NCBI RefSeq assembly: GCF_030684315.1
Contig: NC_081362.1
Span: 41,877,744-41,941,743, forward strand
DNA from: Stegostoma tigrinum
Lineage: Eukaryota
Length of the DNA stretch: 64,000 nucleotides
Direction: 5' to 3'
The stretch's first letter is position 1. Each line of letters begins with the position of its first letter. The translations under genes were made by a program, and so were the position numbers. The notes below the pieces were generated by a model that was not told where the DNA came from, searched no databases, and saw only the letters and a list, made by a program, of their open reading frames with translations. Below, in pieces: positions 3,159 to 41,392 of this stretch.

Positions 3159-3309
3159 GAGTTAATGTTTCAGGTCCAGTGACCCTTCCTTAGTTCTGAT
3201 ATGTTAACCCTGTTTTCTCCTCCACAGGTGCTGCCAGGCCTGCTGAGCTTTTCCAGCAACTTTGTTTTTTCTTCCTGATTTACAGTATCCGCAGTTCTTT
3301 TGGTTTTTA
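3159..3309. mobile_element. Penelope-derived inverted-repeat mini-element with degenerate hammerhead core
   Basis: Minus strand reads CTAAGGA-AGGGTC-ACTG-GACCT-GAAAC-ATT-AACTC; plus arm CCACAGGTGCTGCCAGGCCTGCTGAGCTTTTCCAGC...TTTTGGTTTTTA; flanked by the 8-bp direct repeat TCTTCTCT (3151-3158 and 3310-3317). Confidence 0.7.
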
Positions 3310-4329
3310 TCTTCTCTTAGCACTGTTCCCAATAGCCCAGAGATCAGCAATTTAAATGTTCCATTGCAGTACCCCTCCACCTCCAACTTGATTTGTTAGT
3401 TGACCAGAGCGAGAGACGAAGTGGAGTGTAAGTTCTAGGAGAATGGGTTAGGAAAGGGGGAGGGTGAAGCCTAGGGACTTTATGGTAGCTAAGATTCTTT
3501 CGATTGATGGGTAAATGGGGAACCAGGGAATGGAAAACAAACATTCTTACTGGAATAACCAAGGATAAAGGCCAAAGGAAGGTATGTGACCTGACTATAA
3601 TTTGTTTATGGGACTCTTCACCTCATGTGGGTAATGAGTTTGAGTCTAGAGGTAATTTACAAAGGGAATGGGCAATTTTTTCTGAAGGAGGATGCATGAG
3701 TGAATGAGGTTATGATGTGAGAGCCAGCATCAGGATTGATGAACTTCTCCTATCCTGAAATTTCTATAATTATATGAAGGCCCTCATTAATTGAGTCTAA
3801 CCTAAAGGAGGTGTTTGGGAACATTTTTGCTGAACTCAGTTCAGAATGATGTGCCCTCTGAGAATCCCTCAACCTTTCCCCCCCTGTCCTTTGTGCAAAC
3901 ACTTTGTTTGCATCACATCACCACGTAGTGTCACTGGTCTTTATATGTGAAATCCAGGTACTAGCAAAGGGGGAGTTCAGCTCTGACTGATGTAGCTAAT
4001 GCAAAATTGTCACCTTCAAATGAGCTGGACTCCACTGCAGAATCCAAGGTAGTAATAGAGATCATGCCCTTTGAAAGTCCCAGCAGTTGTCAAGCCTGAC
4101 TGCATCTTGTGGAGTGCAGAGGCAATGGTTTCAGTGTAAATATTAATGGTTGTAGTTGGAGTTGCCCAAAATCTCACCTGTTTGTAATAGTGTTGCTACA
4201 GTGTAAATGTTATAATGGAATGAGAGAGTATTCTGTTGTGTTACAGTTGTTATTTATCAATGTAATTTCAGTGTATTGCCACTGGTTACTAATGGAATCA
4301 CATTCTTCTTACTCCTAGCATTTACTCAA

Positions 4330-4749: not shown

Positions 4750-5755
4750 TTAGAGCTAGGGAGGGGATAGGTCAGTCCAGGGAGGACGGAAAGTCAAGGG
4801 GGCAGGATGAGGTAAGTAGGTGGGAGATGGGGGTGGGACTTGAGGTGTGAGGAGGGGATAGGTGGGAGGAAGGACAGGTTAGGGAGGCGGGGATGAACTG
4901 GGCTGGTTTTAGGATGTGGTAGGGGGAGGGGAGATTTTGAAGCTTGTGAAGCCCACATTGATACCATTGAACTGCAGGGTTCCCAAGCGGAATATGAGTT
5001 GCTGTTCCTTCAACCTTCGGGAGGCATCATTGTGGCACTGCAGGAGGCCCAGATGGACTTGTCATCTGAGGAATGGGAGGGGGAGTTGAAATGGTTCGCG
5101 ACTGGGAGGTGCAGTTGTTTATTGCAAACCAAGTGGAGGTGTTTTATAAAGTGGTCCCCAAGCCTCCGCTTAGTTGCCCTGATGTGGAGGAGGCCACAAC
5201 GTCAACAACGGATGCAGTATGCCACATTAGTAGATGTGCAGGTGAACATCTGCTTGATGTTGAAAGTCATCTTGGGGCCTGGGATGGAGGTGAGGGGGGA
5301 GGGGTAGGGGCAGTTGTAGCAGTTCCTATGGTTGCAGGGAAAAGTGCTGGGTGTGGTGGGGCTGGAGGGGAATGCGGAACGGACAAGGGAGTCATGGAGA
5401 GAGTTGTCGCTCCAGAAAGCAGATGAGGGTGGGAAAGTAAAATGTCTTTGGTGGTGAGGTCTGACACCCTTGACCTGTCCGTCCTCCCTGGACTGACCTA
5501 TCTCCTCCTTAACTCCCCATCTACACTCACCTTTACTGGGTCCATCCCTGCCTCTTTGACCTGTCTCTCTCCTCTCCACCTATCTTCTCCTCTATCCATC
5601 TTCTATCTGCCTTCCCCTCTCTCCCTATTTATTTCAGATCCCCCTTCTCCTCCCCCATTTCTGTAGAAGGGTCTAGGCCCAAAACGTCAGCCTTCCTGCT
5701 CCTCTGATGCTGCTTGGCCTGCTAAATTCATCCAGCTCTGCACCTTGTTATCTCT
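4750..5755 (-). mobile_element. Penelope-like element: GIY-YIG endonuclease fragment plus inverted terminal repeat
   Basis: Minus-strand translation SLHDSLVRS...TFPCNHRNCYNCP...KQMFTCTSTNVAYCIRC*RCGLLHI...TKRRLGDHF...LPVANHFNSPSHS matches the PLE Cys-linker/GIY-YIG region. At ~5460 the element inverts: 5465-5510 is the reverse complement of ~4760-4805 and continues into the terminal repeat ending ACCTTGTTATCTC. Confidence 0.85.
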
Positions 5756-6081
5756 GCCTAACTGGGCTGCCTGATTAACTGTGGCTGTAAACCTACTGTT
5801 TCGCCAAAGTCTGCCCACCATCTACAAGGCACAGTGGTAGTGTGGAATATTTTCTCTTTGCCTGAATTAGTGCAGCTGTAATGTTTGTCAGATTTGACAC
5901 AATATTTAACATCCACTTGTGCCATTGAAACATTCTAAAGCAACTTCAGGTTAACTGTTCACCTGAAGGGCTGTACTTCTACCATTGCATTCATGTTTTA
6001 ACCCAAAATCCTCTGAATACAGCCAAGAGGCCTGAATCACATTGCAGTGTTAGTTGGCTAATGGGAAATTTGTGAAGCACA

Positions 6082-10889: not shown

Positions 10890-12440
10890 GAACTCCAAAC
10901 AGAAAATGCTGGAAATACTCAGCAGGTTAGGCAGCATCTGTGGAGTGGGAAACAAGATTGTCATGTCAGGTCGATGAACTAGAAGACAGGAGAGATCAAT
11001 TGACACAAAGTTAGTCTTCCAGGGCCAAAGAGAATATAATTGGGTGAAGACAGTAAAGAATCAAAAGACATGCTTTGTGAGTCATTATGTGAAAGTAAAA
11101 TATGAGGAAAGAAACAAAATATCTGAAGATAAAATAAAGAAAATAGACAGGCAGAATTTACAGCCTGAAACTGTGGAACTCAACATTGAGTCTGGAAGGC
11201 TGCAACACAGTGCTTCCCAAAGGTTTTGCTCTCCTGGCCCCTGTTTTGGTGCTTCCAAAGGTTGCCGAGACTCTAGATCTGTGAGAGCTGGTGGTGGGAT
11301 TGAGAGACCTGTAAAAGTGACAGGGAAGAAAGCTGTTGAATCCACAAGGTTTTTAAGGAAAAGGTACCCACCTTCTGAAAAAGATGTTTTGCTCAGCACT
11401 CATGCCTATACGATTGAGTAGTTAGGGCAGACTGCTATTATAAAGCTGAGTTTTAAAGGAGCCATGCAGCAGGTTGCATGTGGTCAGAGGCCCACAGTAG
11501 CCATTGCTTGGAGGTTATGACCCCAAACTGTGGCTGTCCACTTCATTGAGTTTCACAATCCAAGGTTTGGGACCCATCCCCTGCTGTAAGATCGCTAAGC
11601 AAAAAATGAAATTCTGATCCTCAAGCTAACAGTGAGCTTCACAGGAACAGTGCAGTGGGCCAAGGACATATCAATGTGAGAGCAGAGTGGAGAGTTAAAT
11701 TGACAGGGGTCCTGGAGGATTTGGGTTATGCTTGCAGACTGAATTAAGGTGTTCTGCAAAAAGGTCATCCAATTTGCTTTCAGAGTCCCTGGTACAGAGG
11801 GGATCACATTGTGAGCAGCTAAAACGGTGTGATAACTTGAACAAAATACATGTAAATCGCTACCTCAATTGGAAGTAGTGTTTGGGCATTGGAAAAGGAA
11901 GACAGAGCAAGTAGAAGGGCATGTGTTGCACCTTCTGTGATTGCATTGAAAGGTGCTGTGGGAAGGCAGGGCTGTTAGTGGCTTGGCCAGGATATTATTG
12001 AAGGAAAAGTCCTTTGGAATGCTGAAAGGGGAGGAAAGTGAAGATGTGTTTGGTGACCGCAATGCATTGGAGGTGATGGGAATAGTGGAAAATGATTTGT
12101 TGAACAGAATATCAAGGCTAAATGAGCAGAAAGTACCCACATGGTTTCTGGGAGGGAAGGGAAAGTGTGACAGTAGAAGTGGAAATGTGAAGGACATTGT
12201 TGAAGGTCCTGATGTGACCATGGTAGTGGAAGGAGAGAGAGTGTCTTTGGTTGAGGAGAAAATCAGATCTGTCAGAAATGCTGTTTGGAAGGTCATATCA
12301 TCGGAACAGATGCATAGAAAGTGGGGGCACTGACTGAATGGAATAGAGTCTCTACAGGGTGTAGGGTGTGAGGAAGTGCAGATAATCTGGCTGTGGTAGT
12401 CAGTGGGCTTATAGTAAATGTTGGTTGATAGCTAAGATGA
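10890..12440 (-). mobile_element. Old Penelope-like element remnants
   Basis: Terminal repeat AAACAGAAAATGCTGGAAATACTCAGCAGGTTAGGCAGCATCTG at ~10897-10940; minus translation HSTFQCNHRRCNTCP at ~11920-11960 is homologous to the PLE at 4750-5755. Confidence 0.65.
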
Positions 12441-13714
12441 TTTAATGTAATCTCAGTGAGTGCACATTCCTATGACAGCTAATGACACTTCCACAGATGC
12501 ACTGCCCTGTTACTTTCTCAGCATAGACTGGAGCTTACATACATTACATCCTCATGTTCTGGTCAGCACTGAGGCCTTAAACACAAACTCTTACCCACCA
12601 TACCTCTCTAAGTGCCCATAGATCTGATTCCATTCCTTCACAGGAGCAATGACACCATGCCACTTCCCCTTGCTGAGTGCAGTAAGTCCTTGACCCTTGT
12701 CTGAGATCTCTCTGAGTATTGCTTGAGGACGTCATGCTGGCTTGCCTGGTTGGAGGGGCTGGTACCACTAGCACTGGTAAACAGGACCATCAGCTGTTCC
12801 TGCAGGCAGCATCCTGCACAGACATTTGTTCATTTTGTATAGGGTGACAACAGGTGATGGGGATCAAGAGGAGGGAAGGGGGGCAAGATATTGGGATCCA
12901 GGATGGGGAGGTGGTGACAGCAGATAGCATTTGAAAACCTTGGCTCAGACATCCAGATGGATACTGCTAGCTTGCAGGGATTAGGAGCTGTTTAAATAAG
13001 GCATCATGACCTTTGACCCATGTGGTGATGTCAGGGGCAGCAATTCCCACTGTCAAATGATATACCGGGCCCCATGACACTGAATGTCCAGTTGGCTGGC
13101 CAATGTATGATATTACCTCCCAGTGGAAGTCCTGCTCATCTGTAGCCCTGCCATTGAGGCACTTGTTGCTGTAACAGAAGTTCCCCTATTATCTGTAATT
13201 TAAAGGAAATTTTGTTGAAATGCTGCCTTTGGAGATGTGGAAAACCATCTTAAGCTGATTGTTCATTCTGCTGTTTGTAACTTAGAAGTGTAATTGCATT
13301 CTGACAAACCACTCATTGTGGTTTCTGTTTGTGGGCAGAGTGAGTAATCAGCTTGCACAGAAAGGCCAAAAGTGTTGCTCTTTGAACAGACCATTTTCGA
13401 CCATTGTGGTAGATTCGCTGCCAGAAAGCACAAACTGTGGTCATGGCTTTAAATGACTGCCCGCATACTGCTCTTTATACTATAACTGGATCTGTGAAAC
13501 TCATTCTGCAGTGCAATTAAAACAGGTTGCAGGGCAACGAGAGTCCCAGCATATTTCATTTAAGTCCTCGGGGGATATATACCACAAGAGCTAGAGTTTG
13601 AGTCTTTATAATGCCATAGAACAGTGACCAATGTAGAGCTGGCTGCAAACTTCAGTCAAGTATTGAGCAGAATCTTACGTGGATCTTAAGGATGTGGGCT
13701 GTGGCTGGAATCAG

Positions 13715-14139: not shown

Positions 14140-14399
14140 TCGGAGAGAGTGCCACATTCTCAGTGCTGAGGGAGCGCCACACTGTCAGAGGGTCAGTAGC
14201 TGAGAGACCGCCACACTGTCAGAGGGTCAGTGCTGAGGGAGCGCCGCACTGTCGGAGGGTCAGTGCTGAGGGAGCGCCGCACTGTCGGAGGGTCAGTGCT
14301 GAGGGAGTGGGCACTGTCGGAGGGTCAGTGCTGAAGAAATGCCGCTCTGTGGAAGGGTCAGTGCTGAGGGAGTGGGCACTGTCGGAGGGTCTGTACTGA
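14140..14399 (+). repeat. 33-bp minisatellite, ~8 units
   Basis: Unit CAGTGCTGAGGGAGCGCCGCACTGTCGGAGGGT, starting at 14161, 14194, 14228, 14261, 14294, 14326 and 14359. Confidence 0.9.
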
Positions 14400-14800: not shown

Positions 14801-15272
14801 GTTCAGATTGTTGGTGAGGAGATTTGCCAGGATGTTGCCTGGTATGGAGGGAAGGTCTTACGAGGAAAGGCTGAGGGACTTGAGGCTGTTTTCATCAGAG
14901 AGAAGAAGGTTGAGAGGTGACTTAATTGAAACATATAAAATAATCAGAGGGTCAGATAGGGTGGATAGGGAGAGCCTTTTTCCTAGGATGGTGATGGTGA
15001 GCACGAGGGGGCATAGCTTTAAATTGAGGGGTGAAAGATATAGGACAGATGTCAGAGGTAGTTTCTTTACTCAGAGTAGTAAGGGTGTGGAACTCTTTGC
15101 CTGCAATGGTAGTAGATTCGCCAACTTTAGGTACATTTAAGTCATCATTGGACAAGCATATGGACGTACATGGAATAGTGTAGGTTAGATGGGCTTCAGA
15201 TTGGTGTGACAGGTCGGCACAACATCGAGGGCCGAAGGGCCTGTACTGTGCTGTCATGTTCTATGTTCTATG
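14800..15272 (+). mobile_element. CR1 (HER1-type) LINE 3' fragment
   Basis: RRFARMLPGMEGRSYEERLRDLRLFSSERRRLRGDLIETYKI...TRGHSFKLRGERYRTDVRGSFFTQ; (TATGTTC)n tail; very similar to the 3' part of the copy at 26997-28862. Confidence 0.9.
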
Positions 15273-17440
15273 TAATCATGTGAGAAGCCCCACAAGGTCT
15301 TTTGTGATGTTAGGAGCAACCAGTAGCCTTTTCCAATGGAGCTCCAAATGTTGATACAAGCTTTGCGGTAGAGAGTGGCAAGAGGCTTATTATTGATGGG
15401 GATTTTTACTTGTCATCACCCTCATTAACTGCAAATCTTGCCTCACTGGTATGTAGCTTCTTCTTGTAGAGTAGGATAGACAGACACTTGACTCTGTGAG
15501 TTGAAAGTCAAAGCAGGTACCTTGTCACTCTGGCTTGCTGGTTGCTTCTCTGTACTTCGATCTTTGACATCAAGTACCAATGCTCTGCATCATCATGGCA
15601 CATCTCTGATCGACTTGCACAAGCAACATTGCTGCACTTCAGTGTGGCACTTTGGAGGACACCACCTACTATTATTGTAATGTTGTTATAAGGATGAAAC
15701 TGCGCACATGGGATCAAGCACTGAGCTTATGGAATGGACCAGGCTGCATCTCAGGGCTCCTTGCTTACTCTCTGAATGTTCACTCACTTAGCATCTACTT
15801 GCATTCTCTCAGCATCCCCTACCTTGCTTTGCCATGCCATTTAGTGCATTGATCCCTCAGGCAGAGCTTAAAATTCCACTGTCTTTATTCTTCTGTCTTG
15901 ACTTAACATACATTGACATACAGCTTGTTTTGCTGGGCATTAGTCCTCAGTCAAGAGGATGGACAACTTGTTATACAGCACAGTGCTATGTCAATCTCAT
16001 GTGCCAGCTGTGTAGTGGAACATTGCACGTGCTGTAAGTGAATATCCATGCCTCAAGGGGAGCTGTCCTCACTGAAGGCAGAAAGGCCTCTGCCGTCAGG
16101 GGCTCCTAGCACAGGATGTCAAGGCCAGATCAGCCCAGGAGTTGGCTTTGGTACGATGTCCAGTCTAGGCGCATATGGTCATGGCGTCTGTATCTCTACA
16201 GTCCAGGAAGTGGGTCAGAATGTCCTGGGGGACCATTTACTGAAAGTCATGAGGGAGGAAACTTATCGAGGCCTGGTGTGTGTGGGAGGCAGACTGGTGA
16301 ACTTAATCTTGGGTAGTGGGGTCTGAAGGCTGGGGTGCAAAGGTTTGTTGGAGTAGGGGGTTTCGGCTCCATATGTTAAGGGGAGATGATACAACATGGG
16401 TAGGAAAAGGGTCATGTAGGAGGTTTGGGGAGTCAATCATCACCAGTGAGCAGAAACCTGACTTCCTGGGGGTTGTTTGGGGTGGGGGAATAGTGCATTA
16501 CCACACATGGCATCAAATGCCAGCTCAGTTGCCTGGTGCTGGGAAGGAGGCAAGTGGCATATAGAGAATCTGATAGAGGTGGGATGAAGTTGGTGGGGCT
16601 TGGGGAGGTGTGATGCCTCTGGAGTTGAAAGGTAGAGCTACCTGGAAGTGGAGTATTGATACTTGGAAGTGGAATATTGATATTTGGGGCTCATCTAGAT
16701 GCAGAGTCTGGAAGTAAGGAGCAGCATCAGTTGTCTTCAATTATTGCGTAAATCGCAAGTTTGCAATGGAAATGAAAACAGTTGCAACCACAACTGGAAT
16801 GGGGCAGCTGCGTGCATCGCTCTGTGAGTAAGGAAGCTGCAAGTTCCAGCAATGTGAGGCCTGTCGAGTGGAAACAGCATTGGATACAGACTCATACCCT
16901 GTGACATAGAATCCCTGGCAACCTTTATGCATTCCTGGCACCTCCCTGCCCCAAGGATTTCAGACCATTTCTTACTAGATTCAGACTGACCCAATTAGCG
17001 TCTGTGATCCAATAGCAATGCCTGTGTCCCTGGTAAGAGAGCCAGGTTGCCTGTCAGTCAGCCATTGCCAACACACAGGTCACTTTACACCTTGGATCAT
17101 GTAGGAATAAGGATGGGTGGCTTCTTTGTTTGTCAGCTGCAGTTGTTCCTATATAGAGACTTGAAGGAACAGGCTATATTGAACAGTGCACATAGAATTA
17201 CAAATGTGAGCATTTATGATCAATGAAATGTCACTTGTGCCATCAACGTGCTCTCAGAATGTATTGTTCTTCCTTCCCCTCCCACTGTGTCTTAGTGCAG
17301 TCCCAGCTTCTGCAGCTGGGCTAGAGGCATCCTGCCCCAAGCTGGAGCCTGTTGGCCTGGAGCTATGGTTGGTCAACCCCAGGGAAGTTTTTCTAGAGGG
17401 GTCACGTTCCCTGAATTCCTCCTGCTTAGAGGCAGGTGCC

Positions 17441-20272: not shown

Positions 20273-20922
20273 ATAAAAACCAAAATGACTGTGCACACTG
20301 AAAATCAGAAACAAAAACAGAATTTGCTGGAAAAGCTCAGCAGGTCTGGCAGCATCTGTGGACAGAAACCAGAGTTAACATTTTGGGTCCAGTGTTCGTT
20401 CCTCAGAGCTGACGGTAGCTAGACTCTTCAGCACATCACAGTTTCCTGGCCAACATCTTTGTCTCAGGCTTGCTGCAGGGCTCCAGTGAAGTTCAGCGTA
20501 AGCTGGAAGAACAGCACTGTTTGGGAACGCTACAGCCTTCTAGATGCCATATCGAGTTCAACAATTTTGGAGCTTGAGGCAACTTCTCTCGTATCCTTAC
20601 CCCAACCCCCACACACCAGGCCTTGTTGCCAATGGTCTGTTATTATACACAACCTATTGTTAGCCACTAATTGTCCCTATTCATTCTCCCATGCCAATCG
20701 TTATCAAATCCATTGTGTGTCCAACCGTTATTCTCTCTCTTTGTGTTCTATCGTTACCTATCATTTACTTATTATCCCCTCCTCCCACCCTAGTTTCTGC
20801 GTAAAAAAAATTTTCCTAGTTTCCCTCAGTTCTGAGGAAGGGTCACTGAAACTCTAACTTTGATTTTTCTCCACAGATGCTACCAGACATGCTGAGTTTT
20901 TCCAGCAATTTCTGTTTTTGTT
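20273..20922. mobile_element. Penelope-derived element with inverted terminal arms and TSD
   Basis: Left arm TAAAAACCAAAA...GCTGGAAAAGCTCAGCAGGTCTGGCAGCATCTG; right arm is its reverse complement; PLE 3' sequence between them; flanking duplication TCAGATAA(G/A)TTTGA at 20259-20272 and 20923-20936. Confidence 0.75.
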
Positions 20923-20949: not shown

Positions 20950-21600
20950 ACCCTTCTTCAAAAAAAACCTTTTGTCAGTCCACAAGCATTTGACCCTGAG
21001 TTTTCAATTGCCCATCATTTCATTCTCCTCTCTGCTCTCAGGCTGATACCTTTGTTGCAGGCCTGCTGCACTGCTCCAGTGAAGGTCAATCTGAACTTGA
21101 GGAAAAGCATCTCATCTTTCAGTTAAGGAGTTTTCCACCTTCTGGAGTCAATCGAGTTTTCTCATTTTAGATTGCAAATTCTGTTCCCATCCCACTCCTC
21201 TATTTTATTTCCATTTCTTTGTGTTCTTTTTGGTTTCTTTTATTTTTATTTCCAATAATAGGATATCCACATCTTTTGAGTCTTTTTTTTCTTTTTTGCT
21301 TGGGAGACTCACACTTCTGTGATTCAATCTCTTCTGTCTCTCACCCTACCATAGATAGCCCTTTAGTCCTTGTCCCAATCACCATTTGTTCAAAACTTAT
21401 TATATCTCTAACTTTACCCATTTCAAGTTGAAATGTATCAACATGAACTAGTAATTCCGTTTCTCTCACCATAGAATCGTGCTGAGGATTTCCATGATTT
21501 TCTTTGTGCTTTCATTTAAGGGTAAAATATCAAATTGTTTGTTCTCTCCACTTCTTTATTTGTATTTCAGATTTGCAGCATCTGCAATATTTTGCTTAAG
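20950..21600 (+). mobile_element. Older Penelope-like 3' remnant
   Basis: GCCTGCTGCACTGCTCCAGTGAAG...CTTGAGGAAAAGCATCTCATCTTTC (PLE C-terminal LEE.HLIF motif) and decayed terminal repeat ...TTTCAGATTTGCAGCATCTGCA. Confidence 0.5.
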
Positions 21601-22412: not shown

Positions 22413-23166
22413 TGTTGTCTGTGCTTTGGACACTTCAAACAGTTTATGTATTAAAACACTTGCCCCAAATGCTGGTGTTAGTGATGCAGATGACTCAGTT
22501 CAACTTGATTTTATTAACAAAATACTCTTCACTAAAAATACTACGTGAGCATTTCCCAAATTCCCACAATATTTACTCTCGATCTAGCTCTATTTTTCTG
22601 AGAGAAGTCATGACCAGTAACAATCTACCTGCTTGAGCTGGATGATTGGAATCTCCTTCCTCTCCAGTGTAGGGCTAGCTTTCTTACAATAAGGTGGCTC
22701 TTGCAGGTCAGAGCAGATCTTTTTCTGGGTCTTCTGCCTTAAGTCTTGCTGCAGGTTTTCCCTGCGAGTCATCACTAAGTCTTTGCTGAGTCTTCATTGA
22801 TCCTTCCTCACAACTTCCAGAATGTTCTAGACCTTTTGGCCAATGGGGTCATTTGCTAGGTTCAAATCATCCAATGGAGTCACACTAATACCTTTCACTG
22901 TTGCCATTCCCAGAGGCATAAGTACACATCCTTAGGTACTCAAGTTGCCAGAACATCTGATCGACAATACACTACCCTCAGCTGGTTGTAATTTGTACCC
23001 CTTGAACCTTTGTAACCTCTTTGACCTTGAGTTGCACTGTTCTCTGTAACTAATAACTCCTGCCCACTGCTTAATTTAGTTTGACCAATTTTCTATCAGG
23101 CATGATTTCTCTAGCTATGGATCAATTTAGAATGTCCAATTTTGGGCCCATGGTTGCTTCACCACA
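22413..23166 (-). repeat. 3' LTR of the provirus
   Basis: Alignable along its length to 29734-30519 (e.g. TGTTGTCyGTGCwTTGGAC, TTTTATTAACAAAA, TTAGAATGTCCAATTTTG, CCATGGTTGCTT); minus-strand AATAAA at ~22510; purine tract CAGGAGAGAC (23416-23425, minus) abuts the duplicated LTR start beyond the Penelope insertion. Confidence 0.8.
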
Positions 23167-23401
23167 TAAAAACCAAAAGAACTGTGGTTGCTGTAAATCA
23201 GGACCAAAAACAAAGATGCTGGAAAAGCTCAGCAGGTCTGGCAGTATCTGTGGAGGAGAAAACAGAATTAACGTTTCCGGCCCCGTGGCCCTTCCTCAGA
23301 ACTGTTCTGAGGAAGAGTCACCGGGCCTGAAATGTTAACTCTTGTTTTCTTCCCCACAGACGCTGCCAGACCTGCTGAGCTTTTCCAGCAACTTTGTTTT
23401 T
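23167..23401. mobile_element. Palindromic Penelope-derived mini-element with two hammerhead cores, inserted at the LTR/PPT junction
   Basis: Arms of ~100 bp (23205-23302 and 23304-23402) are imperfect reverse complements centred on 23303; TSD GTTGCTTCACCA at 23153-23164 and 23402-23413. Confidence 0.8.
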
Positions 23402-23439
23402 GTTGCTTCACCATAGTCTCTCCTGTGGATTCCTGTACA

Positions 23440-24200
23440 TTTTCTAAAAGACCTTTCACAGTTTTCTTGTGGCAGAGGGTTTCAACCTCAGGCTCTGTCA
23501 AGTCCAGTCCTCTCATGAGGCGTCTGCTCATTAGAACCTGAGGGGGTGTTCAATCCATTTGAACTGAAGGGGAGTCCCTTATGACCATGAGGACAAAGGG
23601 TAAAACTATGTTCTTACTGTTTTGCTGGATGATCTTTTGCAGCGTCCCTTTGAGGATTTTCTTCATCCTTTCTACAAGCCCAATGGATTGAGGATGGAAG
23701 GTGACATGGAACCTTTGGCTGGCACTAAATATATCCATCACTTCATGCATTACCTAGGCTATGAAATGGGTTCCCTGGTCTGAATCTATACCACAGAGAA
23801 GCCCCCATCTAGTGAAAACACGCTGAGTTAAGATGTTTACTGCAACTTTAGTGGTGTCCGTTCAAGTGGGGATCATCTCTATCTGTTTGCTAAAAATGTC
23901 AATGACGACTAGGATATATTTATATCCCTTTTACAGGATGATAGGGGCCAATGTTGTCCATTTCAAGAACAGCCCACAGTCCTGCTACTGGCCTGATATG
24001 CCTTAACTCTCCTTTATTGGCAAACTTGTTTATATTAACATGGGCACAGTTAATACAATTCTTGGTGTAATGTTATATGTTGTTTCCCATTCCTGGCCAT
24101 CAACACAATCCCACAATTTTGTCAGTTGTGGCTTCTATGGCTCGATGATTCTGGACTCACAGTATTCATAAATCACTTGATTTCAATCATGGACTGCTAG
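23440..24200 (-). pseudogene. Retroviral-type integrase remnant
   Basis: YILVVIDIFSK...VFTRWGF...IDSDQGTHF...FHPQSIGLVERMKKILKGTL...LPFVLMVIR; stops and frameshifts. Confidence 0.85.
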
Positions 24201-24499
24201 CATGTATGCCTATCTTTGAGAACAAATCTGAACTGAGTACTTAACCTGTTCTCCCATGTGCTTTACAAGATGGGTATCATTCCCTCCTGTATTTGCTTTA
24301 GCTCAGCATCACAACTCTCAGCCTTTCCCAGATCTTTGACCTTGGTTTGGTCAACAGTGGTGGTATCTATTTGTTCTGGAATGGGGGGGCTGCCACGTTT
24401 CTCCTTTGTGGGCATCATGCTGAGCCAATTCATCTGTCCATATGTTCCCAGCTGGGGAGGAACTAGCTTTAGTGATGCCATATTTGTGTAATTGAGCGT

Positions 24500-26250
24500 T
24501 TTGGAGAATAAATTTGAACAAGGGTGTATACGGCAATGGTTTCCTGTCTGCTTAGATGAATCCTCTACCTTCCCACAGTGACAGGAAGTGATTTCAACTG
24601 TTGCAGACATACGTGCTGTCTGAGTATCTGTCTGCTAGTGGAGGAATATTTTTCAGGGTGGCTGACCATGCAGGTGCCAGCTGCTAGCTCGGCAGCCTGA
24701 GTGCTCATTTTGTTGGGAAACTTTGGCACTAGCTGTATCAGAGGTTCCCCTCTGTGATCCTCCAAGTATACATCACATCCTCCACTGAAGCACATCTGTC
24801 TGTAATATTCTTCTGGGGATCCTCTCATTTGTTCCCAGGTTCCCTTGCATCTTCCTCACAGTTTATTTTGACACAGCTAATCCCTTGGGAACTTCCGTTG
24901 CCACTATCTGGCACTCATGGGATTCTCCTCCGTAACTCATATTCTTGGTGAGGAAGGTAGGCACTGTGGTACCTTTGTCTGTAATGTTGCGACCCTATAA
25001 CCATAGGCTCTGACAGTATCCCTTTAAACCCAGAAAGGGACACAATGAGCTCACACCCCTGGGGGAGGGGCAAACGGATTATGGCCTTGATGCACTGTTT
25101 AATGCTTCCCCTGGGCTGTTACAGTTTCTAAGTATGAGAGCTGGATCTTCACGAATTGTGCTTCCTTGGGGTTAACTTTCAGTCCTGAGGGTGAATAGTT
25201 CCTTTTACACTGTTGACTAAATGTTTGGTCCTTGTACCTGTCCACATTCCATACCAAGCAGTCTGGTCAGGAAACCTTCTCTAACCCTTTCGTCAGTCTC
25301 TGATAAAATATTGATGGAGAATTTGAATACCCTGAGACAAGCAGGTACAGCAGTGTACTGTTTACTCTGAAATGTGAAGATGTTTTTGTATTGTCAGTAT
25401 TGGTGGAAGGAGGCCAGAACAAAATCCATAACTAATGTCTAGTATGGCGAAAAATATTTTGCTCATGAGGCGTGCCTCATCATGGTTTCAGGGCTAGTCA
25501 CTACTGTTGGTGCAGTGATTGTGGTTGTTTTATTGAGTTCCCTGTAATCAATGGTGAGCTGTCAAGAGCCGTCTGGTTTCTTAACTGGCCATATTAATGA
25601 GTTATTAATTGACATCAATGCTACAGGGTCTAGGACTTCTTGTTTTAACAAGCTGCTAATGACCTTGGCCACGTTCCCCTCTGCCTGCTTGGGGAAAGTG
25701 TATCGTTTTTGTGGCTTTGGATCCTGTCCGTCTATCATTACCTCACCATCTATAGGAACCGCAGTCGTGTTTGTTACTGATGAACACATGCTTCTGCTCT
25801 GTGAGAGTTGCCTGTGCTGCTGAGTCCTCTGTCATTCCAGAGCATCTAATCCACTACTTCCCCATGGAACATATTCCCTGTGTGTCTGTGCCTGGTGTAA
25901 TCTTCACTGGGGCCTCATCAAGCTCGGGCATTTGCCAAATATAGCAATTGCCTGGGTGAAAAGACAAATTACACTTCCTCATAAGATCCCAAGCCTAAAA
26001 TGTGCTCAGGACCCACATGGAGATTAACCAGCACAGCTGGGTGATGGCAGACTGTGTCTCCCAGTTTGAATTCTGTAGGTTCTGTCTCCACTCTCTCCTA
26101 AAGGTATCCAGTGAATCTGTTCAGAAGAATTTTCTTAATGGGTTGTTGTTGTCAAAATCTTGGGATGTGTTAAGTGTCATTCCAGATCACTCTGCATCCC
26201 TCGAAAACTCAACAGGGCAGCCTTCTACATCTCCACCCACCAGGAACCGT
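24500..26250 (-). pseudogene. Retroviral-type protease/RT/RNase H remnant
   Basis: PQKRYTFPKQAE...NNSLIWPVKKPDGS*QLTIDYRELNKT; FAILDISYGFC; RNase H STQAAELAA and YSDSTYV; possible degenerate protease GDVEGCPVEF near 26200-26240. Confidence 0.8.
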
Positions 26251-26996: not shown

Positions 26997-28862
26997 CATA
27001 GAACATAGAACATAGAACATTACAACACAGTACAGGCCCTTCGGCCCTCAATGTTGTGCCGACCTGTCATACCGATCTCAAGCCCATCTAATCTACACTA
27101 TTCCATGTACGTCCATATCCTTATCCAATGATGACTTAAATGTACCTAAAGTTGGCGAATCTACTACCGTTGCAGGCAAAGCGTTCCATTCCCTTATTAC
27201 TCTCTGAGTAAAGAAACTACCTCTGACATCTGTCCTATATCTTTCACCCTTTAATTTAAAGCTATGCCCCCTCGTGCTCGCTGTTACCGTCCTAGGAAAA
27301 AGGCTCTCCCTATCCACCCTATCTAACCCTCTGATTATTTTATATGTTTCAATTAAGTCACCTCTCAACCTTCTTCTCTCTAATGAAAACAGCCTCAAGT
27401 CCCTCAGCCTTTCCTCGTAAGACCTTCCCTCCATACCAGGTAACATCCTAGTAAATCTCCTCTGCACCCTTTTCAAAGCTTCCACATTCTTTTTATAATG
27501 CGGTGACCAGAACTGTACACAATACTCCAAGTGCGGCCGCACCAGAGTTTTGTACAGCTGTAGCATAACCTCATGGTTCCGGAACTCGATCCCTCTATTA
27601 ATAAAAGCTAAAACACTGCATGCCTTCTTAACAACCCTGTCAACCTGGGTGGCAACTTTCAAGGATATGTGTACATGGACACCGAGATCTCTCTGCTCAT
27701 CTACACTACTAAGAATCTTACCATTAGCCCTGTACTTTGCCTTCCGGTTGCTCCTACCAAAGTGCATCACCTCACACTTGTCTGCATTAAACTTCATTTG
27801 CCACCTCTCAGCCCAGCTCTGCAGGTTATCTATGTCTCTATGCAACCTACAGCATCCTTCGTCACTATCCACAACTCCACCAACCTTAGCGTCGTCTGCA
27901 AATTTACTAACCCATCCTTCTACGCCCTCATCCAGGTCATTTATAAAAATGACAAACAGCAGTGGACCCAACACCGACCCTTGCGGTACACCACTAGTAA
28001 CTGGAATCCAGGATGAACATTTCCCATCAACTACCACCTTCTGTCTTCTTTTAGTAAGCCAATTTCCGATCTAAACTGCTATATCTCCCACAATTCCATT
28101 CCTCTACATTTTGTACAATAGCCTATTGTGGGGAATCTTATCGAATGCCTTGCTGAAATCCATATACACCACATCAACCGGTTTACTCTCATCTACCTGT
28201 TTGGTCACCTTCACAAAGAACTCAATAAGGTTTGTGAGGCACGATCTTCCCTTCACAAAACTGTGCTGACTATCCCTAATCAATTTATTCTTTTCTAGAT
28301 GATTATAAATCCTATCCCTTATAACCTTTTCCAACACGTTACCAACAACTGAGGTAAGGCTCACTGGTCTATAATTACCAGGATTGTCTCTACTCCCCTT
28401 CTTGAACAGGGGAACCACATTTGCTATCCTCCAGTCATCTGGCACTATTCCTATAGACAATGACGAGTTAAAGATCAATGCCAAAAGCTTGGCAATCTCC
28501 TCCCTGGCTTCCCAGAGGATCCTAGGATAAATCCCATCCGGCCCAGGGGACTTATCTATCTTCACCCTGTGTAGGATTTCTAATACGTCTTCCTTGTGAA
28601 CCTCAATCCCACCTAGTCTAGTAGCCTATGTCTGAGTATTCTCCTCGACAACATTGTCATTTTCTGGAGTGAATACTGTTGAAAAATATTCATTTAGCAC
28701 TTCCCCTATCTCATCTGACTCCACACACAATTTACCACTACTATCTTTGACTGGGCCTAATCTTACTTGCGTCATTCTTTTATTCCTTAAATACCTATAG
28801 ACAGCCTTAGGGTTTACCCTGATCCTATCCACCAACAACTTCTCATGTCTCCTCCTGGCTTT
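26997..28862 (-). mobile_element. Young CR1 (HER1-type) LINE, 5'-truncated, inserted in gag
   Basis: ORF2 pieces KSPGPDGIYP...PGNYRPVSLTS...YMDFSKAFD...GVPQGSVLGPLLFVIFINDL...FADD...; only a few stops; (TATGTTC)n tail at 26997-27020. Confidence 0.95.
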
Positions 28863-29733: not shown

Positions 29734-30519
29734 TGTTGTCCGTGCATTGGACCCTTTGAACAGTTTCTGTGTTAAAAATACCTTACCTGAGCATTCTTAT
29801 TAGTGAGGCAGAACTAAGGGGCACAAAATTTGGTTTGTTGTGCAACTTAGTTTTATTAACAAAAACATTGCTCATTAAACATTGCCCCCCCAAATTCCTA
29901 TAAATATTTAGTCTCTACCCAGCTCTATCCATCTGAGAAAAGATATAACTTGTAACAATCCACATGTTTGAGCTGGGCTGTTGAAATATCCTTCCGCTAG
30001 ATATAAGGTTGGCTCTCCTCCAGGAAGATAGGACACATGGGCCAGGGCAGATTTTCTCCTGGGTCTTCTCAAATCACTGAATGGCTTTCCACCTCAAGTC
30101 CTGCTGTGAGTCTTACCTGCATGTGTAAGCTAAGCTTTCATTGATTTCCCCACGCCGCACCACCCCCCACCACCTTACACAGGCCCTTCGAAATGTTCTG
30201 TGGCCAATGGGGTTATGAACTGGGTTCAAATCATCCAATGGTGTGGCCATGCCAAGAGATGTAAACTGCATATACACGGATAGTAAAGGTGCCATAACAT
30301 CTGATTGACACTTCTCCAATACATAACCCTCAGGCTGATTGTAACTGGTTTTCCTTCAACTTTTGTAACCTCTTCGATCTTGAATTCCTTCATTCTCTGT
30401 AGTCGTTAGCAGTTGGCTGCAGTTTGATTTCGTTTGGTCAGTTTTTGGTCAGGCCTGATTTCTCTGGCTGTGGGTCAAATTAGAATGTCCAATTTTGTGT
30501 CCATGGTTGCTTGACAACA
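29734..30519 (-). repeat. 5' LTR of the provirus
   Basis: Bounded by the perfect terminal inverted repeat TGTTGTC...GACAACA; homologous to 22413-23166; followed on the minus strand by the PBS. Confidence 0.85.
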
Positions 30520-31239: not shown

Positions 31240-31470
31240 ATAAAAACAGAAAGTGCTGAAGAAAGCAACAGGTCTGGCAGCATCTGTGGAGAGAAACAGA
31301 GTTAACACTTAAAATCCAATAAGACTCTTCTTTACAGGTCCAAATAATTGTGTTCTGGAGAAGCTGAACTTGAAATGTTAATTCTGTTTCTCTTTCAATA
31401 GATGCTGCCTGAGCCTCCATAGCATTTTCTATTTCCATTTCAGATTTTCAGGTTCCATGGTATTTTGCTT
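31240..31470. mobile_element. Older palindromic Penelope-derived mini-element
   Basis: AAAAACAGAAAGTGCTG...CAGGTCTGGCAGCATCTG...GAGTTAACA, then GTTCTGGAGAAG...CTTGAAATGTTAATTCTG...AGATGCTGCC. Confidence 0.65.
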
Positions 31471-31986: not shown

Positions 31987-32200
31987 AACAAAAACAGAAA
32001 GTGAAAAAAATCCTGCAGGTCTGGCAACATCTATGGACAGAAATAGAGTTAACGCTTCAAGTCCAACATGACTCTTCTTTGGAGCTCCAAATAATTGAGT
32101 CTGGAGAAGTCTCATACTGGACTCTGTTTCTCTCTCCACAGATGCTGCCAAACCTCTCGAGTCTCTATACCATTTTCTATTTGCATTTCAGATTTTGAGG
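31987..32200. mobile_element. Older palindromic Penelope-derived mini-element
   Basis: Same inverted arm arrangement; the minus-strand stem II variant reads GAGTC-ATGTTG-GACTT. Confidence 0.65.
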
Positions 32201-33634
32201 TTCCAAGTTTTTTGATTTCTTCTTTTGATTTAAGAAGTCCAGTGATTTGTATAAGAAGCTAATAACATTGCTGTTGCAAATGAGCTGTTGTTGTGATTTT
32301 CCCAGTTGCATGGTTCAGATTATTTCATTACCAACTTGAATTACTGTCTAGAGACACTCCTGGAGGTTATACGCATTATTGAGGCATGATTTCACCAGTG
32401 CCTTATTTGCTTTTGAATTAAACTATTATCAAAACAGGCCATGAAGTTATCAAATGGCACTTTGTTCCAAACTGATCTGTTGTCTTTACAGCACGTGATC
32501 TGACACTTTTCTTTCATATACAGAGAAGTGTGCTAACCAATTCTGTATTTAATTTGGTTTCCAGTGCTGATACATTTTGTAAACTTACGAATTGTGCTTT
32601 CCACAAATGTTAATTTGTTGACCTATCAAATGAAACAAAAATTTGAATTTTTCTGGTGGAAAGATCTGTATCAATTTTTTTTTGCATTGGTTGATTGTTG
32701 ATAGGCCCTTGAACTTATTAATTAATTCCTTCATTTGGAAAATGAATATTATGATTTTGATCTTTTTGTGCTACACTCATTTTGTTACCTTGGTATATTT
32801 GTCGATTAAAGCTGTTGAACCTTTATTTTGTAATGAATATTGTTGTTGTACTAAAACTGAAAGTTGTGAAAGTTTGTGCTGTTTTCAATGATGATTTCAA
32901 TAAATTTCAGTTTGTCTTTTACAATTTGGCTTCTTCATAGAGGTGAATTGAAAATATTCCCTTTTAAAGTGTCTGAAGGATTTCTGAAAGGTCTGTAGGT
33001 AGAAACTTAGCAAAATGGCTTCAATCTGATTTGAAAGTGTTTTGTTTATATCAAAGATAACTTCTGTGACATCGTTGGCTCTGAATTTTTACTGAGTCTG
33101 AGGTATTTTGGAGTGAATTCAAGACCACATGATCAGGCTTGCAAAATTTTTTTTATCTTCTTTTCATATTTTATTTAATAAAGTTGATAAAATTACTTAT
33201 TTGTTGAATAAAACTTTGAATTTGTCATTCAAATCATGGAAATGACAGAGACATTATTATCTTTACTGATGCTTTGAAAAACAACAGCAACTTTTACTAT
33301 TGATTTTTTTTTCCTTTTGCAATTGTGTTCTTTAAACTGAAAGATCATCTTAAATTGCTATTGTTAAATTTGTCAACATAAATTTATTAACCCTCTGTAG
33401 AAATCTTGACTTGACTTTGCAGCCTTGTTTTTCACATGGAAATTAGAATTTTTTTGTCCCTTCCATGAAGAGATCAAATGTACTTTGGATGCCTGAGAAT
33501 TTGTCTCTTTACACATGCATTCAATTTGGATTTGTTCCCTTATCTGTTAGTGAATTTTTGTACTGTCATTGTCTTCTTAAAAGCTTGTTTCCTTTATTGC
33601 TGCCTATAACTGGCTTTTTGGCACTTTTGAAGAA

Positions 33635-39770: not shown

Positions 39771-40162
39771 TGAAGCAAATTTCCCCTTAGACCAAATCTA
39801 GAGGAACAGTTGCATCATCCTCTTATCAACTGCCACAGAAATGGAACTGTGAATTGAATGAAGTTCTACATTCTAGTGAAATATGTTGTTTGCTCTTCCT
39901 TTTGCACCCTTAGTTGCTTACTAAATAATACCAAGCTGAAATATATTGTCTGTCAAAGTTTATTTGACCATCAGCTAAAGAGGTTTTACTGCTACTTTTT
40001 CTGGTATTTTAATAGTGAATTGCATTATTGTTCATCACAGCAAGTACTTCCCCACCATCCCTATTATTTCAAACTCATAGGAAGTTTAAGCACTGAAAGG
40101 TGTTAGGCAGTACCAAATTTTAGCATTCACCATATAGGAATTCTCAGACATAGCACATTATA

Positions 40163-40260
40163 TCTCTGATGAAGGGTCTGGGCCCGAGGCATCGGCTTTT
40201 GTGCTCCTGAGATGCTGCTGGGCCTGCTGTATTCATCCAGCCTCACATTTCGTTATCTTA
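40163..40260 (+). mobile_element. Isolated Penelope terminal repeat with mutated hammerhead core
   Basis: CTGATGA-A-GGG-TCTGGG-CCC-GAGGC-ATC, then GCTCCTGAGATGCTGCTGGGCCTGCTGTATTCATCCAGC. Confidence 0.75.
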
Positions 40261-40864
40261 TATCTCTGTCCATTCATTTTTAATATTTATCTTAAATGGG
40301 CTACAGTTCACCATCCTCAAGAATTTTACTTCCATCCACTTTGTTCTAGAACAGGAAGTTACCCCTCCTGTCTTTGATACTTTGCTTGGTTTGCTATAAT
40401 TTAAGGGTTGCTTTTTGATAGTAGTTGATCCTTTGGTAATTAACATTTATACACCATCATGTTGCTAATTAAGGCTGTTTAACCCAATTGGCTAGATGGT
40501 TATCAGGTGGTTTAGAATAATGCAAATGATATGTGTTTAGTTCCTGTTCTGATTGAGATTAACACAAACCCTGCTTTCGCATCCTACTCCTGACAGTGGA
40601 AAACTGTGGCAAACCACCATTGACAAACAGCATTGAGAAAACAGCTCAAGATGTAGCATAAGCAGACAAGAGCCAAAGCAACCTTCAGACAGAACACACA
40701 TGACATGTGTTCTACTGTCTTGGCCATTCAGTGCAAGTTTCTATAACATGCTCTTGTGTTGATACTTTTATGTATTTTTTTAAGCCTAATGAGAGTTTTT
40801 TTTTGCTGTGGTTATCCTGCAGTTTATGAATTGTTGTGTGAAGATTTCAGATGTACATTAATAT

Positions 40865-41286: not shown

Positions 41287-41392
41287 AGTTCTGAGGAAGG
41301 GTCACTGGACCTGAAGCATTAACTCTAGGTTTTTTTCCTTGACAGATGCTGCCAGACCTGCTGACCTTTTCCAGCAACTTTGTTTTTATTCA
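41287..41392 (+). mobile_element. Penelope terminal repeat with hammerhead-like core
   Basis: AGTT-CTGAGGA-A-GGGTC-ACTG-GACCT-GAAG-CATT-AACT, then CAGATGCTGCCAGACCTGCTGA. Confidence 0.75.

Follow-up and report, generated by a model that had tools for sequence, protein, structure and literature searches.

The 64,000-nt stretch of the Stegostoma tigrinum genome analyzed here (the window) contains, around position 23303, a short palindromic element in which two minimal hammerhead motifs lie head to head. The original prediction suggested that this element may be a non-autonomous, retrozyme-like unit with a ribozyme in either transcription direction. The question raised by the locus is whether it belongs to a family that replicates in this form, or whether the palindrome arose when a longer element was inserted. 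It is very probably a dead, extremely 5'-truncated EN+ Penelope-like element (PLE) insertion, in which two hammerhead-bearing ends are joined head to head between the copies of a 14-nt duplication. The features of the locus are as follows.

23153..23166: target-site duplication, left copy (exact over 12 nt, 13 matches in 14 nt)
23167..23401: insert of 235 bp, delimited by the duplication and by paralogous contigs stopping at the host edge
23167..23205, minus strand: PLE "tail" of 39 nt, on the left arm only (arm alignment; tail as defined in excerpts of PMC8557442 and PMC11167929)
23206..23303, minus strand: left arm, the pLTR end of a PLE in minus-strand sense (arm search and alignment)
23266..23303, minus strand: minimal type I hammerhead motif with a GUU triplet; cleavage predicted between 23270 and 23269
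23296..23310, no strand: head-to-head junction (center 23303), where the 5' edges of the two hammerhead motifs meet
23303..23340, plus strand: minimal type I hammerhead motif (manual reading of the core, with pairing)
23303..23401, plus strand: right arm, an untailed pLTR end that stops at a T run (arm alignment)
23402..23415: target-site duplication, right copy (exact over 12 nt, 13 matches in 14 nt)

Insertion limits and the two arms

An exact 12-nt direct repeat, GTTGCTTCACCA, was found at 23153-23164 and 23402-23413, and lengthens to 13 matches in 14 nt (23153-23166 and 23402-23415). Flanking exact repeats of at least 12 nt occurred in 12 of 20,000 random 249-nt spans of the window. Contigs from four public runs (X1, X6, X16, and X18, the last being RNA by guess only) were placed on 23010-23560 at 80% likeness, and in five of the 32 records listed, host-paralogue sequence aligned up to 23164-23166 and then stopped. 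Because the paralogous host contigs end there, the left repeat copy was assigned to the target sequence and the insert to 23167-23401; the stopping points also fit a duplication of 14 nt. The original claim of a ~235-bp insertion with a 12-bp target-site duplication was thus borne out, and such a duplication is a feature of EN+ PLE insertions. No empty-site joint was present among the 15 joints listed of 431. A left-flank paralogue that is 65% identical ends exactly at the duplicated target sequence. The insertion breaks a heavily decayed minus-strand integrase-like frame at about 22500-24700 (also listed with 29840-30515), for which the matches to PDB integrases were weak (best E of 0.029). 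Record 32 of run X6, from a second species, carries the right end of the element together with its flank, with 11 differences in 180 nt and an element side of just 21 letters, below the bridging threshold, hinting that the insertion may be older than the split from that species.

The two arms are identical at 85 of 98 aligned positions and meet at 23303, the point about which they had been proposed to fold back; the 13 positions that differ showed no sign of constraint. Folding of 23165-23401 predicted hairpins of -154.8 and -153.4 kcal/mol for the two strands (z-scores of -19.3 and -18.1), with none of 200 shuffled sequences as stable. The description of the element as palindromic holds for these mirror-image arms and fails for the unit as a whole, as the left arm is longer by 39 nt (23167-23205). 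An inverted, 5'-truncated head-to-head pLTR copy with a 30- to 40-bp tail at one end only, as found in EN+ PLE insertions, is present, the 39-nt tail lying on the left arm. The GTT that forms the 3 nt after the right arm agrees with the element family as well as with the target duplication; in run X1, the match of 1,003 contigs extends to 23404 and is followed by tail sequence. When 14 arms were compared, the two arms of this unit were mutual nearest matches, albeit by a thin margin (87% versus 86% and 85%), and both carry a stem II variant (23281 and 23325) that is absent from 84% and 89% of the X1 depth. Depth of X1 at the junction was 140,375, versus 152,125 and 254,226 in the adjacent bins, which fits crossing and ending contigs alike.

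Using the left arm as an nhmmer query, 17 hits were obtained in the window at E values up to 0.013, including the left arm itself. The contig pieces placed on 23010-23560 numbered 62,541 for X1, 45,106 for X6, 22,248 for X16, and 6,800 for X18, counts of pieces that do not equal copy numbers. At least 431 joint types were recorded, and among the 15 listed several join arms elsewhere, for example at 23255-23351 and 23256-23362. This arm forms the end of a shark-type PLE that is very abundant. An exact-pattern scan for the arm gave no match in metagenome contigs or prokaryote genomes; six matches to the arm pattern in viral contigs were only 17 to 25 nt long and were dismissed as chance, and a junction-pattern scan gave no match. 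In the portions of the published literature surveyed on Penelope in sharks, palindromes, non-autonomous hairpins, and head-to-head units, the shark family is undescribed, though repeat databases may list it and the supplements of PMC4209133 and 10.64898/2026.07.22.740005 may list shark hammerhead families.

Condition of the hammerhead motifs

Both hammerhead strings quoted in the original prediction are present as given, one per strand, and in both arms the core boxes follow the type I order with an extra base after A9. Positions are given here in the general hammerhead numbering. This numbering agrees with that used in PMC4209133. In the minus-arm motif, stem I has four pairs (one a wobble), stem II has four of five pairs with a G-G opposition at 10.1/11.1, and ACGU is intact. 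In the plus-arm motif, stem I has three pairs, stem II has one A-C mismatch and two wobbles, and AUGU replaces ACGU. The palindromic stem III that had been read on both arms therefore stands for the minus arm only, and the four-pair stem I is reduced to three pairs on the plus arm. A G10.1-C11.1 pair and a palindromic 15.2-16.2 are both found in the X1 majority, and each arm here is without one of the two. The X1 majority letters, taken from the 41 of 524 rows listed, restore a five-pair stem II with G10.1-C11.1 as well as the AACU strand of stem I. The core of each arm is off the majority of seven window copies at 5 of 38 positions; both ribozyme copies are decayed.

At the level of the family, the hammerhead motif looks real from the comparison of related copies. 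Among 12 copies from the window, 79.8% of the 99 cells are paired, versus at most 49.0% with the partners slid, and a stem I pair changes from U-A to C-G between two families of window copies. Covariation was weak against shuffles, 25 of 500 of which reached the score. PLE minimal type I hammerhead motifs within a genuine insertion with a target duplication, as had been envisaged, are what the locus contains. A scan of the window with Rfam gave no family at gathering score, and the 17 Rfam matches around the element at E values up to 10 included no hammerhead model. Matches to miRNA models were rejected as hairpin driven, scoring 37.8 and 37.5 bits where the cut-offs are 85 and 100.

Whether either motif could fold in a transcript of the locus was assessed from predicted structures. 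The predicted pairing probability of stem II was about 1e-12, both in the full unit and in a transcript cut off shortly after the ribozyme. Imposing the hammerhead fold on the whole unit was predicted to cost 45.2 and 42.4 kcal/mol. The hairpin between the arms is thus predicted to sequester both hammerheads. As the pair is head to head, each strand has one sense ribozyme. The minimal hammerhead motif is reported to need dimers, and in vitro single minimal motifs remained uncleaved and dimers cleaved weakly, according to the parts of PMC4209133 drawn on here.

Pyrimidine-rich stretches that end in CAG and resemble splice acceptors were observed upstream of the hammerhead 5' edge at 20812-20831 and 20411-20423. 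In Drosophila virilis Penelope, the intron extends up to the 5' end of helix I, as stated in an excerpt of PMC4209133, and a splice acceptor-like stretch of this kind may explain why arms often begin at the hammerhead 5' edge.

Related units and the origin of the palindrome

The pLTR of this arm type could be linked to a PLE open reading frame through other units in the window, chiefly the following.

20273..20922, no strand: sister head-to-head unit, comprising a tailed inverted arm, a 417-nt spacer, an untailed arm, and a 14-nt duplication (1 mismatch)
20419-20574: GIY-YIG C-terminal fragment which, with a 3' UTR, lies in the sister spacer (pairwise match to P0004)

The tail of the sister unit is on its left arm, and its arms share 75 to 80 identical positions in 94 to 97 with those at 23167-23401; they are mutual nearest matches (80 of 95) among the 14 arms, and the unit is of a slightly different subfamily. 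P0004 is a whale-shark protein with RVT_1 and GIY-YIG matches and a CX4CX2C linker, a CX2-5CxxC linker being a motif of Neptune and Nematis in the sections of PMC8557442 consulted. The sister spacer frame is identical to the C terminus of P0004 at 19 of 53 positions (pairwise E of 2e-7; tblastn E of 0.001). Taken alone, the fragment gave no Pfam match, no match among 16 candidates, and three repetitive, unrelated database matches. Linkage of a pLTR to an RT and GIY-YIG frame was found in this sister unit (20419-20574) and in an older family at 4903-5441, and is absent from the copy at 23167-23401. Identity to P0004 is 73 to 88% for the fragments at 4903-5441 and 89% for the frame at 4912-5061. 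For the family of the 23167-23401 unit itself, neither an RT nor a linker was recovered.

A number of further PLE remnants were observed in the window. A second GIY-YIG C-terminal fragment lies at 21018-21164. The older family at 4903-5757 shows the end of a minus-strand open reading frame followed by a plus-strand 3' UTR, a hammerhead with a GUC-type triplet, and a tail-like end, and is possibly another inverted unit. At 40157-40268, a single hammerhead-bearing PLE end of ~100 bp, from this older family too, has an 11- to 12-nt duplication that overlaps both element ends. A distant PLE frame fragment on the minus strand (11584-12446) shares 27 to 30% identity with P0004. Minus-strand RVT_1 fragments are present at 27093-28625 and 14816-15273, with inverted copies of part, 93 to 95% identical, 12 kb away, and a tandem repeat of ~33-nt units occupies 14146-14375.

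In total, five head-to-head units were identified in the window, four of them independent, and the tail was one-sided in all five. The four independent units have four different centers, and the 15-nt center at 23303 occurs once in the window when up to 2 mismatches are permitted. By the test that the original prediction itself had put forward, the sharing of a center among copies, this speaks, within the window, against a replicating, retrozyme-like family. The only pair with a common center, 31242-31470 and 31989-32218, is spaced by ~748 nt and is 77% identical; the upstream flanks align too, with a score of 155.5 versus a shuffled maximum of 112, and the pair was rejected as a re-mobilized palindrome in favor of an old DNA-level tandem duplication that included the upstream flank. 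A unit of the same subfamily at 3159-3310 lacks ~20 nt of its right core and has a left arm reduced to a 39-nt stub; when the tail-primed strand is read, its center coincides with the 2-nt loop of a mini-palindrome at the hammerhead 5' edge. No target duplication was found for 3159-3310, 31242-31470, 31989-32218, or the single arm at 41287.

In a truncated PLE insertion of the kind preferred here, the element endonuclease would make a staggered cut, 14 nt apart, and reverse transcription would be primed from both target ends on the element RNA. One start would lie at the end of the RNA tail and the other 39 nt inward, aided by the 3-nt GTT match; both cDNAs would halt just past the hammerhead, and their ends would join at the self-complementary TCAG-TT-CTGA region at the ribozyme 5' edge. 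This route through two cDNAs is somewhat more probable than not, and is favored because the untailed arm of the sister unit is 417 nt longer than its tailed arm, a difference that is impossible by fold-back of one cDNA. Fold-back self-priming of a single cDNA is a less probable alternative; for the 23167-23401 unit alone, fold-back of the tail-primed cDNA fits equally well. By either route, the mirror arm would be created at insertion. The one-sided tail in five of five units is what would be expected from two RT starts flanking the tail, as described in part of PMC11167929. The hammerheads would then be passengers, since the ~98-bp hairpin predicted for a transcript of the locus would block either fold. 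For arms of the type at 23167-23401, the GIY-YIG link would be carried over from a sister unit of slightly different subfamily.

An unlikely alternative is that the palindrome belongs to a non-autonomous family, the whole unit being transcribed and re-inserted in trans by a PLE protein acting from the tail. Such a family would be a non-coding parasite of the shark PLE, copied as an entire hairpin with a fixed joint at the hammerhead 5' edge and with its ribozymes silenced by the hairpin, comparable to a class I element that resembles a MITE and has long inverted arms. The clean target duplication and intact tail of the unit would suit this reading, as would the report, in an excerpt of PMC3846280, that pLTR sequences alone can mobilize unrelated DNA in trans. 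A similar center also recurs in contigs of two other species: three of the 32 records listed bridge 23303 with at least 31 letters on each side (records 15 and 16 of X16 and record 21 of X18, the latter with 1 gap), with 16 to 24 differences, and four further listed records cross it with fewer letters. Since runs X16 and X18 lack the right flank of this locus, the bridging records place a similar center at other loci. However, the same center could arise repeatedly without replication, because a mini-palindrome lies at the hammerhead 5' edge and 3159-3310 was joined exactly through it; a joining hot spot fixed by sequence predicts just such recurrence. The differing centers of the independent window units, the single occurrence of the exact center, and the origin of the sole common-center pair in an old tandem duplication all count against copying of the whole palindrome, as does the pairing of arms within loci; in addition, RT would be expected to copy poorly through a hairpin of about -154 kcal/mol.

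It is highly improbable that the unit is retrozyme-like, as the original prediction had suggested, with a ribozyme active in either direction and a cleaved or circular RNA. The type I core order on both strands and the family-level pairing and stem I exchange agree with that reading, but the motifs are head to head and not head to tail, so that each strand holds a single minimal motif of the kind left uncleaved in the cited part of PMC4209133. Furthermore, the predicted hairpin would sequester the motifs at a cost of 42 to 45 kcal/mol to open, the pairs of stem II are predicted to be essentially absent in both transcripts considered, the two cores have each drifted, one arm being without G10.1-C11.1 and the other without ACGU, and covariation is weak. 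Two separate insertions, a later DNA rearrangement, or a hairpin kept as a source of host small RNAs are the least probable of all, since, despite the density of arms (~16 other arm hits in 64 kb) and sub-threshold miRNA-model matches that reflect the hairpin, one target duplication encloses the pair of arms, the arms meet to within 1 nt at a shared position of the family sequence, and the differences between them appear unconstrained.

As a single locus, the unit carries little weight, appearing to be one among a great many decayed PLE ends of a shark genome. As a class, such short, countable units preserve a record of both RT starts, of the 14-nt staggered cut, and of how the arms were joined, and a genome-wide census of them could separate the joining of two cDNAs from fold-back self-priming. 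If the palindrome does replicate as a unit, it would represent a new type of non-autonomous retroelement.

Comparison with known systems

The unit has the tested features of an inverted-pLTR PLE insertion, and its layout is a known one. The standard PLE unit in excerpts of PMC8557442 combines an inverted, 5'-truncated copy with a 30- to 40-bp tail that often lies at one end. Passages of PMC3846280 describe this layout as well, together with target duplications and with palindromes where the inverted copies meet, and propose self-priming. With the EN+ PLE units described in these parts of Arkhipova et al. (2013, PMC3846280) and Craig et al. (2021, PMC8557442), the present unit has in common the head-to-head inverted pLTR, the junction palindrome, the 30- to 40-bp tail at one end, the duplication, and heavy 5' truncation. 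It differs in being so truncated that no open reading frame is left, and in a duplication of 14 nt versus the 8 to 10 bp quoted for rotifer copies.

The minimal hammerheads of metazoan PLEs, in the portions of Cervera and de la Pena (2014, PMC4209133) compared here, share with the two motifs a short helix I, an extra nucleotide between 9 and 10.1, a palindromic 15.2-16.2 that is intact here on the minus arm, and occurrence on opposite strands. The opposite-strand pairs described there lie 100 to 700 bp apart, whereas the cores at 23303 abut, and both copies are decayed. Likeness to the Neptune-type shark PLE P0004 consists of the 73 to 88% matches at 4903-5441, the CX4CX2C linker before GIY-YIG, and the match of the sister spacer to its C terminus; the family of the unit is more distant, its decayed frame being 36% identical across 53 aligned positions.

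Non-LTR retrozymes, as characterized in excerpts of Cervera and de la Pena (2020, PMC7229834) and Li et al. (2026, 10.64898/2026.07.22.740005), are likewise short, non-coding, and related to PLE pLTRs, with a type I hammerhead. They are head-to-tail tandems with canonical hammerheads, and with circular RNAs where tested; in contrast, the present unit is a single head-to-head pair of minimal motifs, with one sense motif per strand and no head-to-tail tandem of at least two hammerhead units. A further system for comparison is Poseidon PAc of Anolis (Frangieh et al. 2024, PMC11167929), in which, in the sections available, a hammerhead lies ~100 nt upstream of two RT starts that bound the tail, the PLE protein cuts and extends both DNA strands, and hammerhead mutants insert normally in vitro. 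PAc belongs to another clade, and the formation of inverted units is not shown in those sections; the shared arrangement comprises the position of the hammerhead, the two RT starts bounding the tail, and the cutting and extension of both strands.
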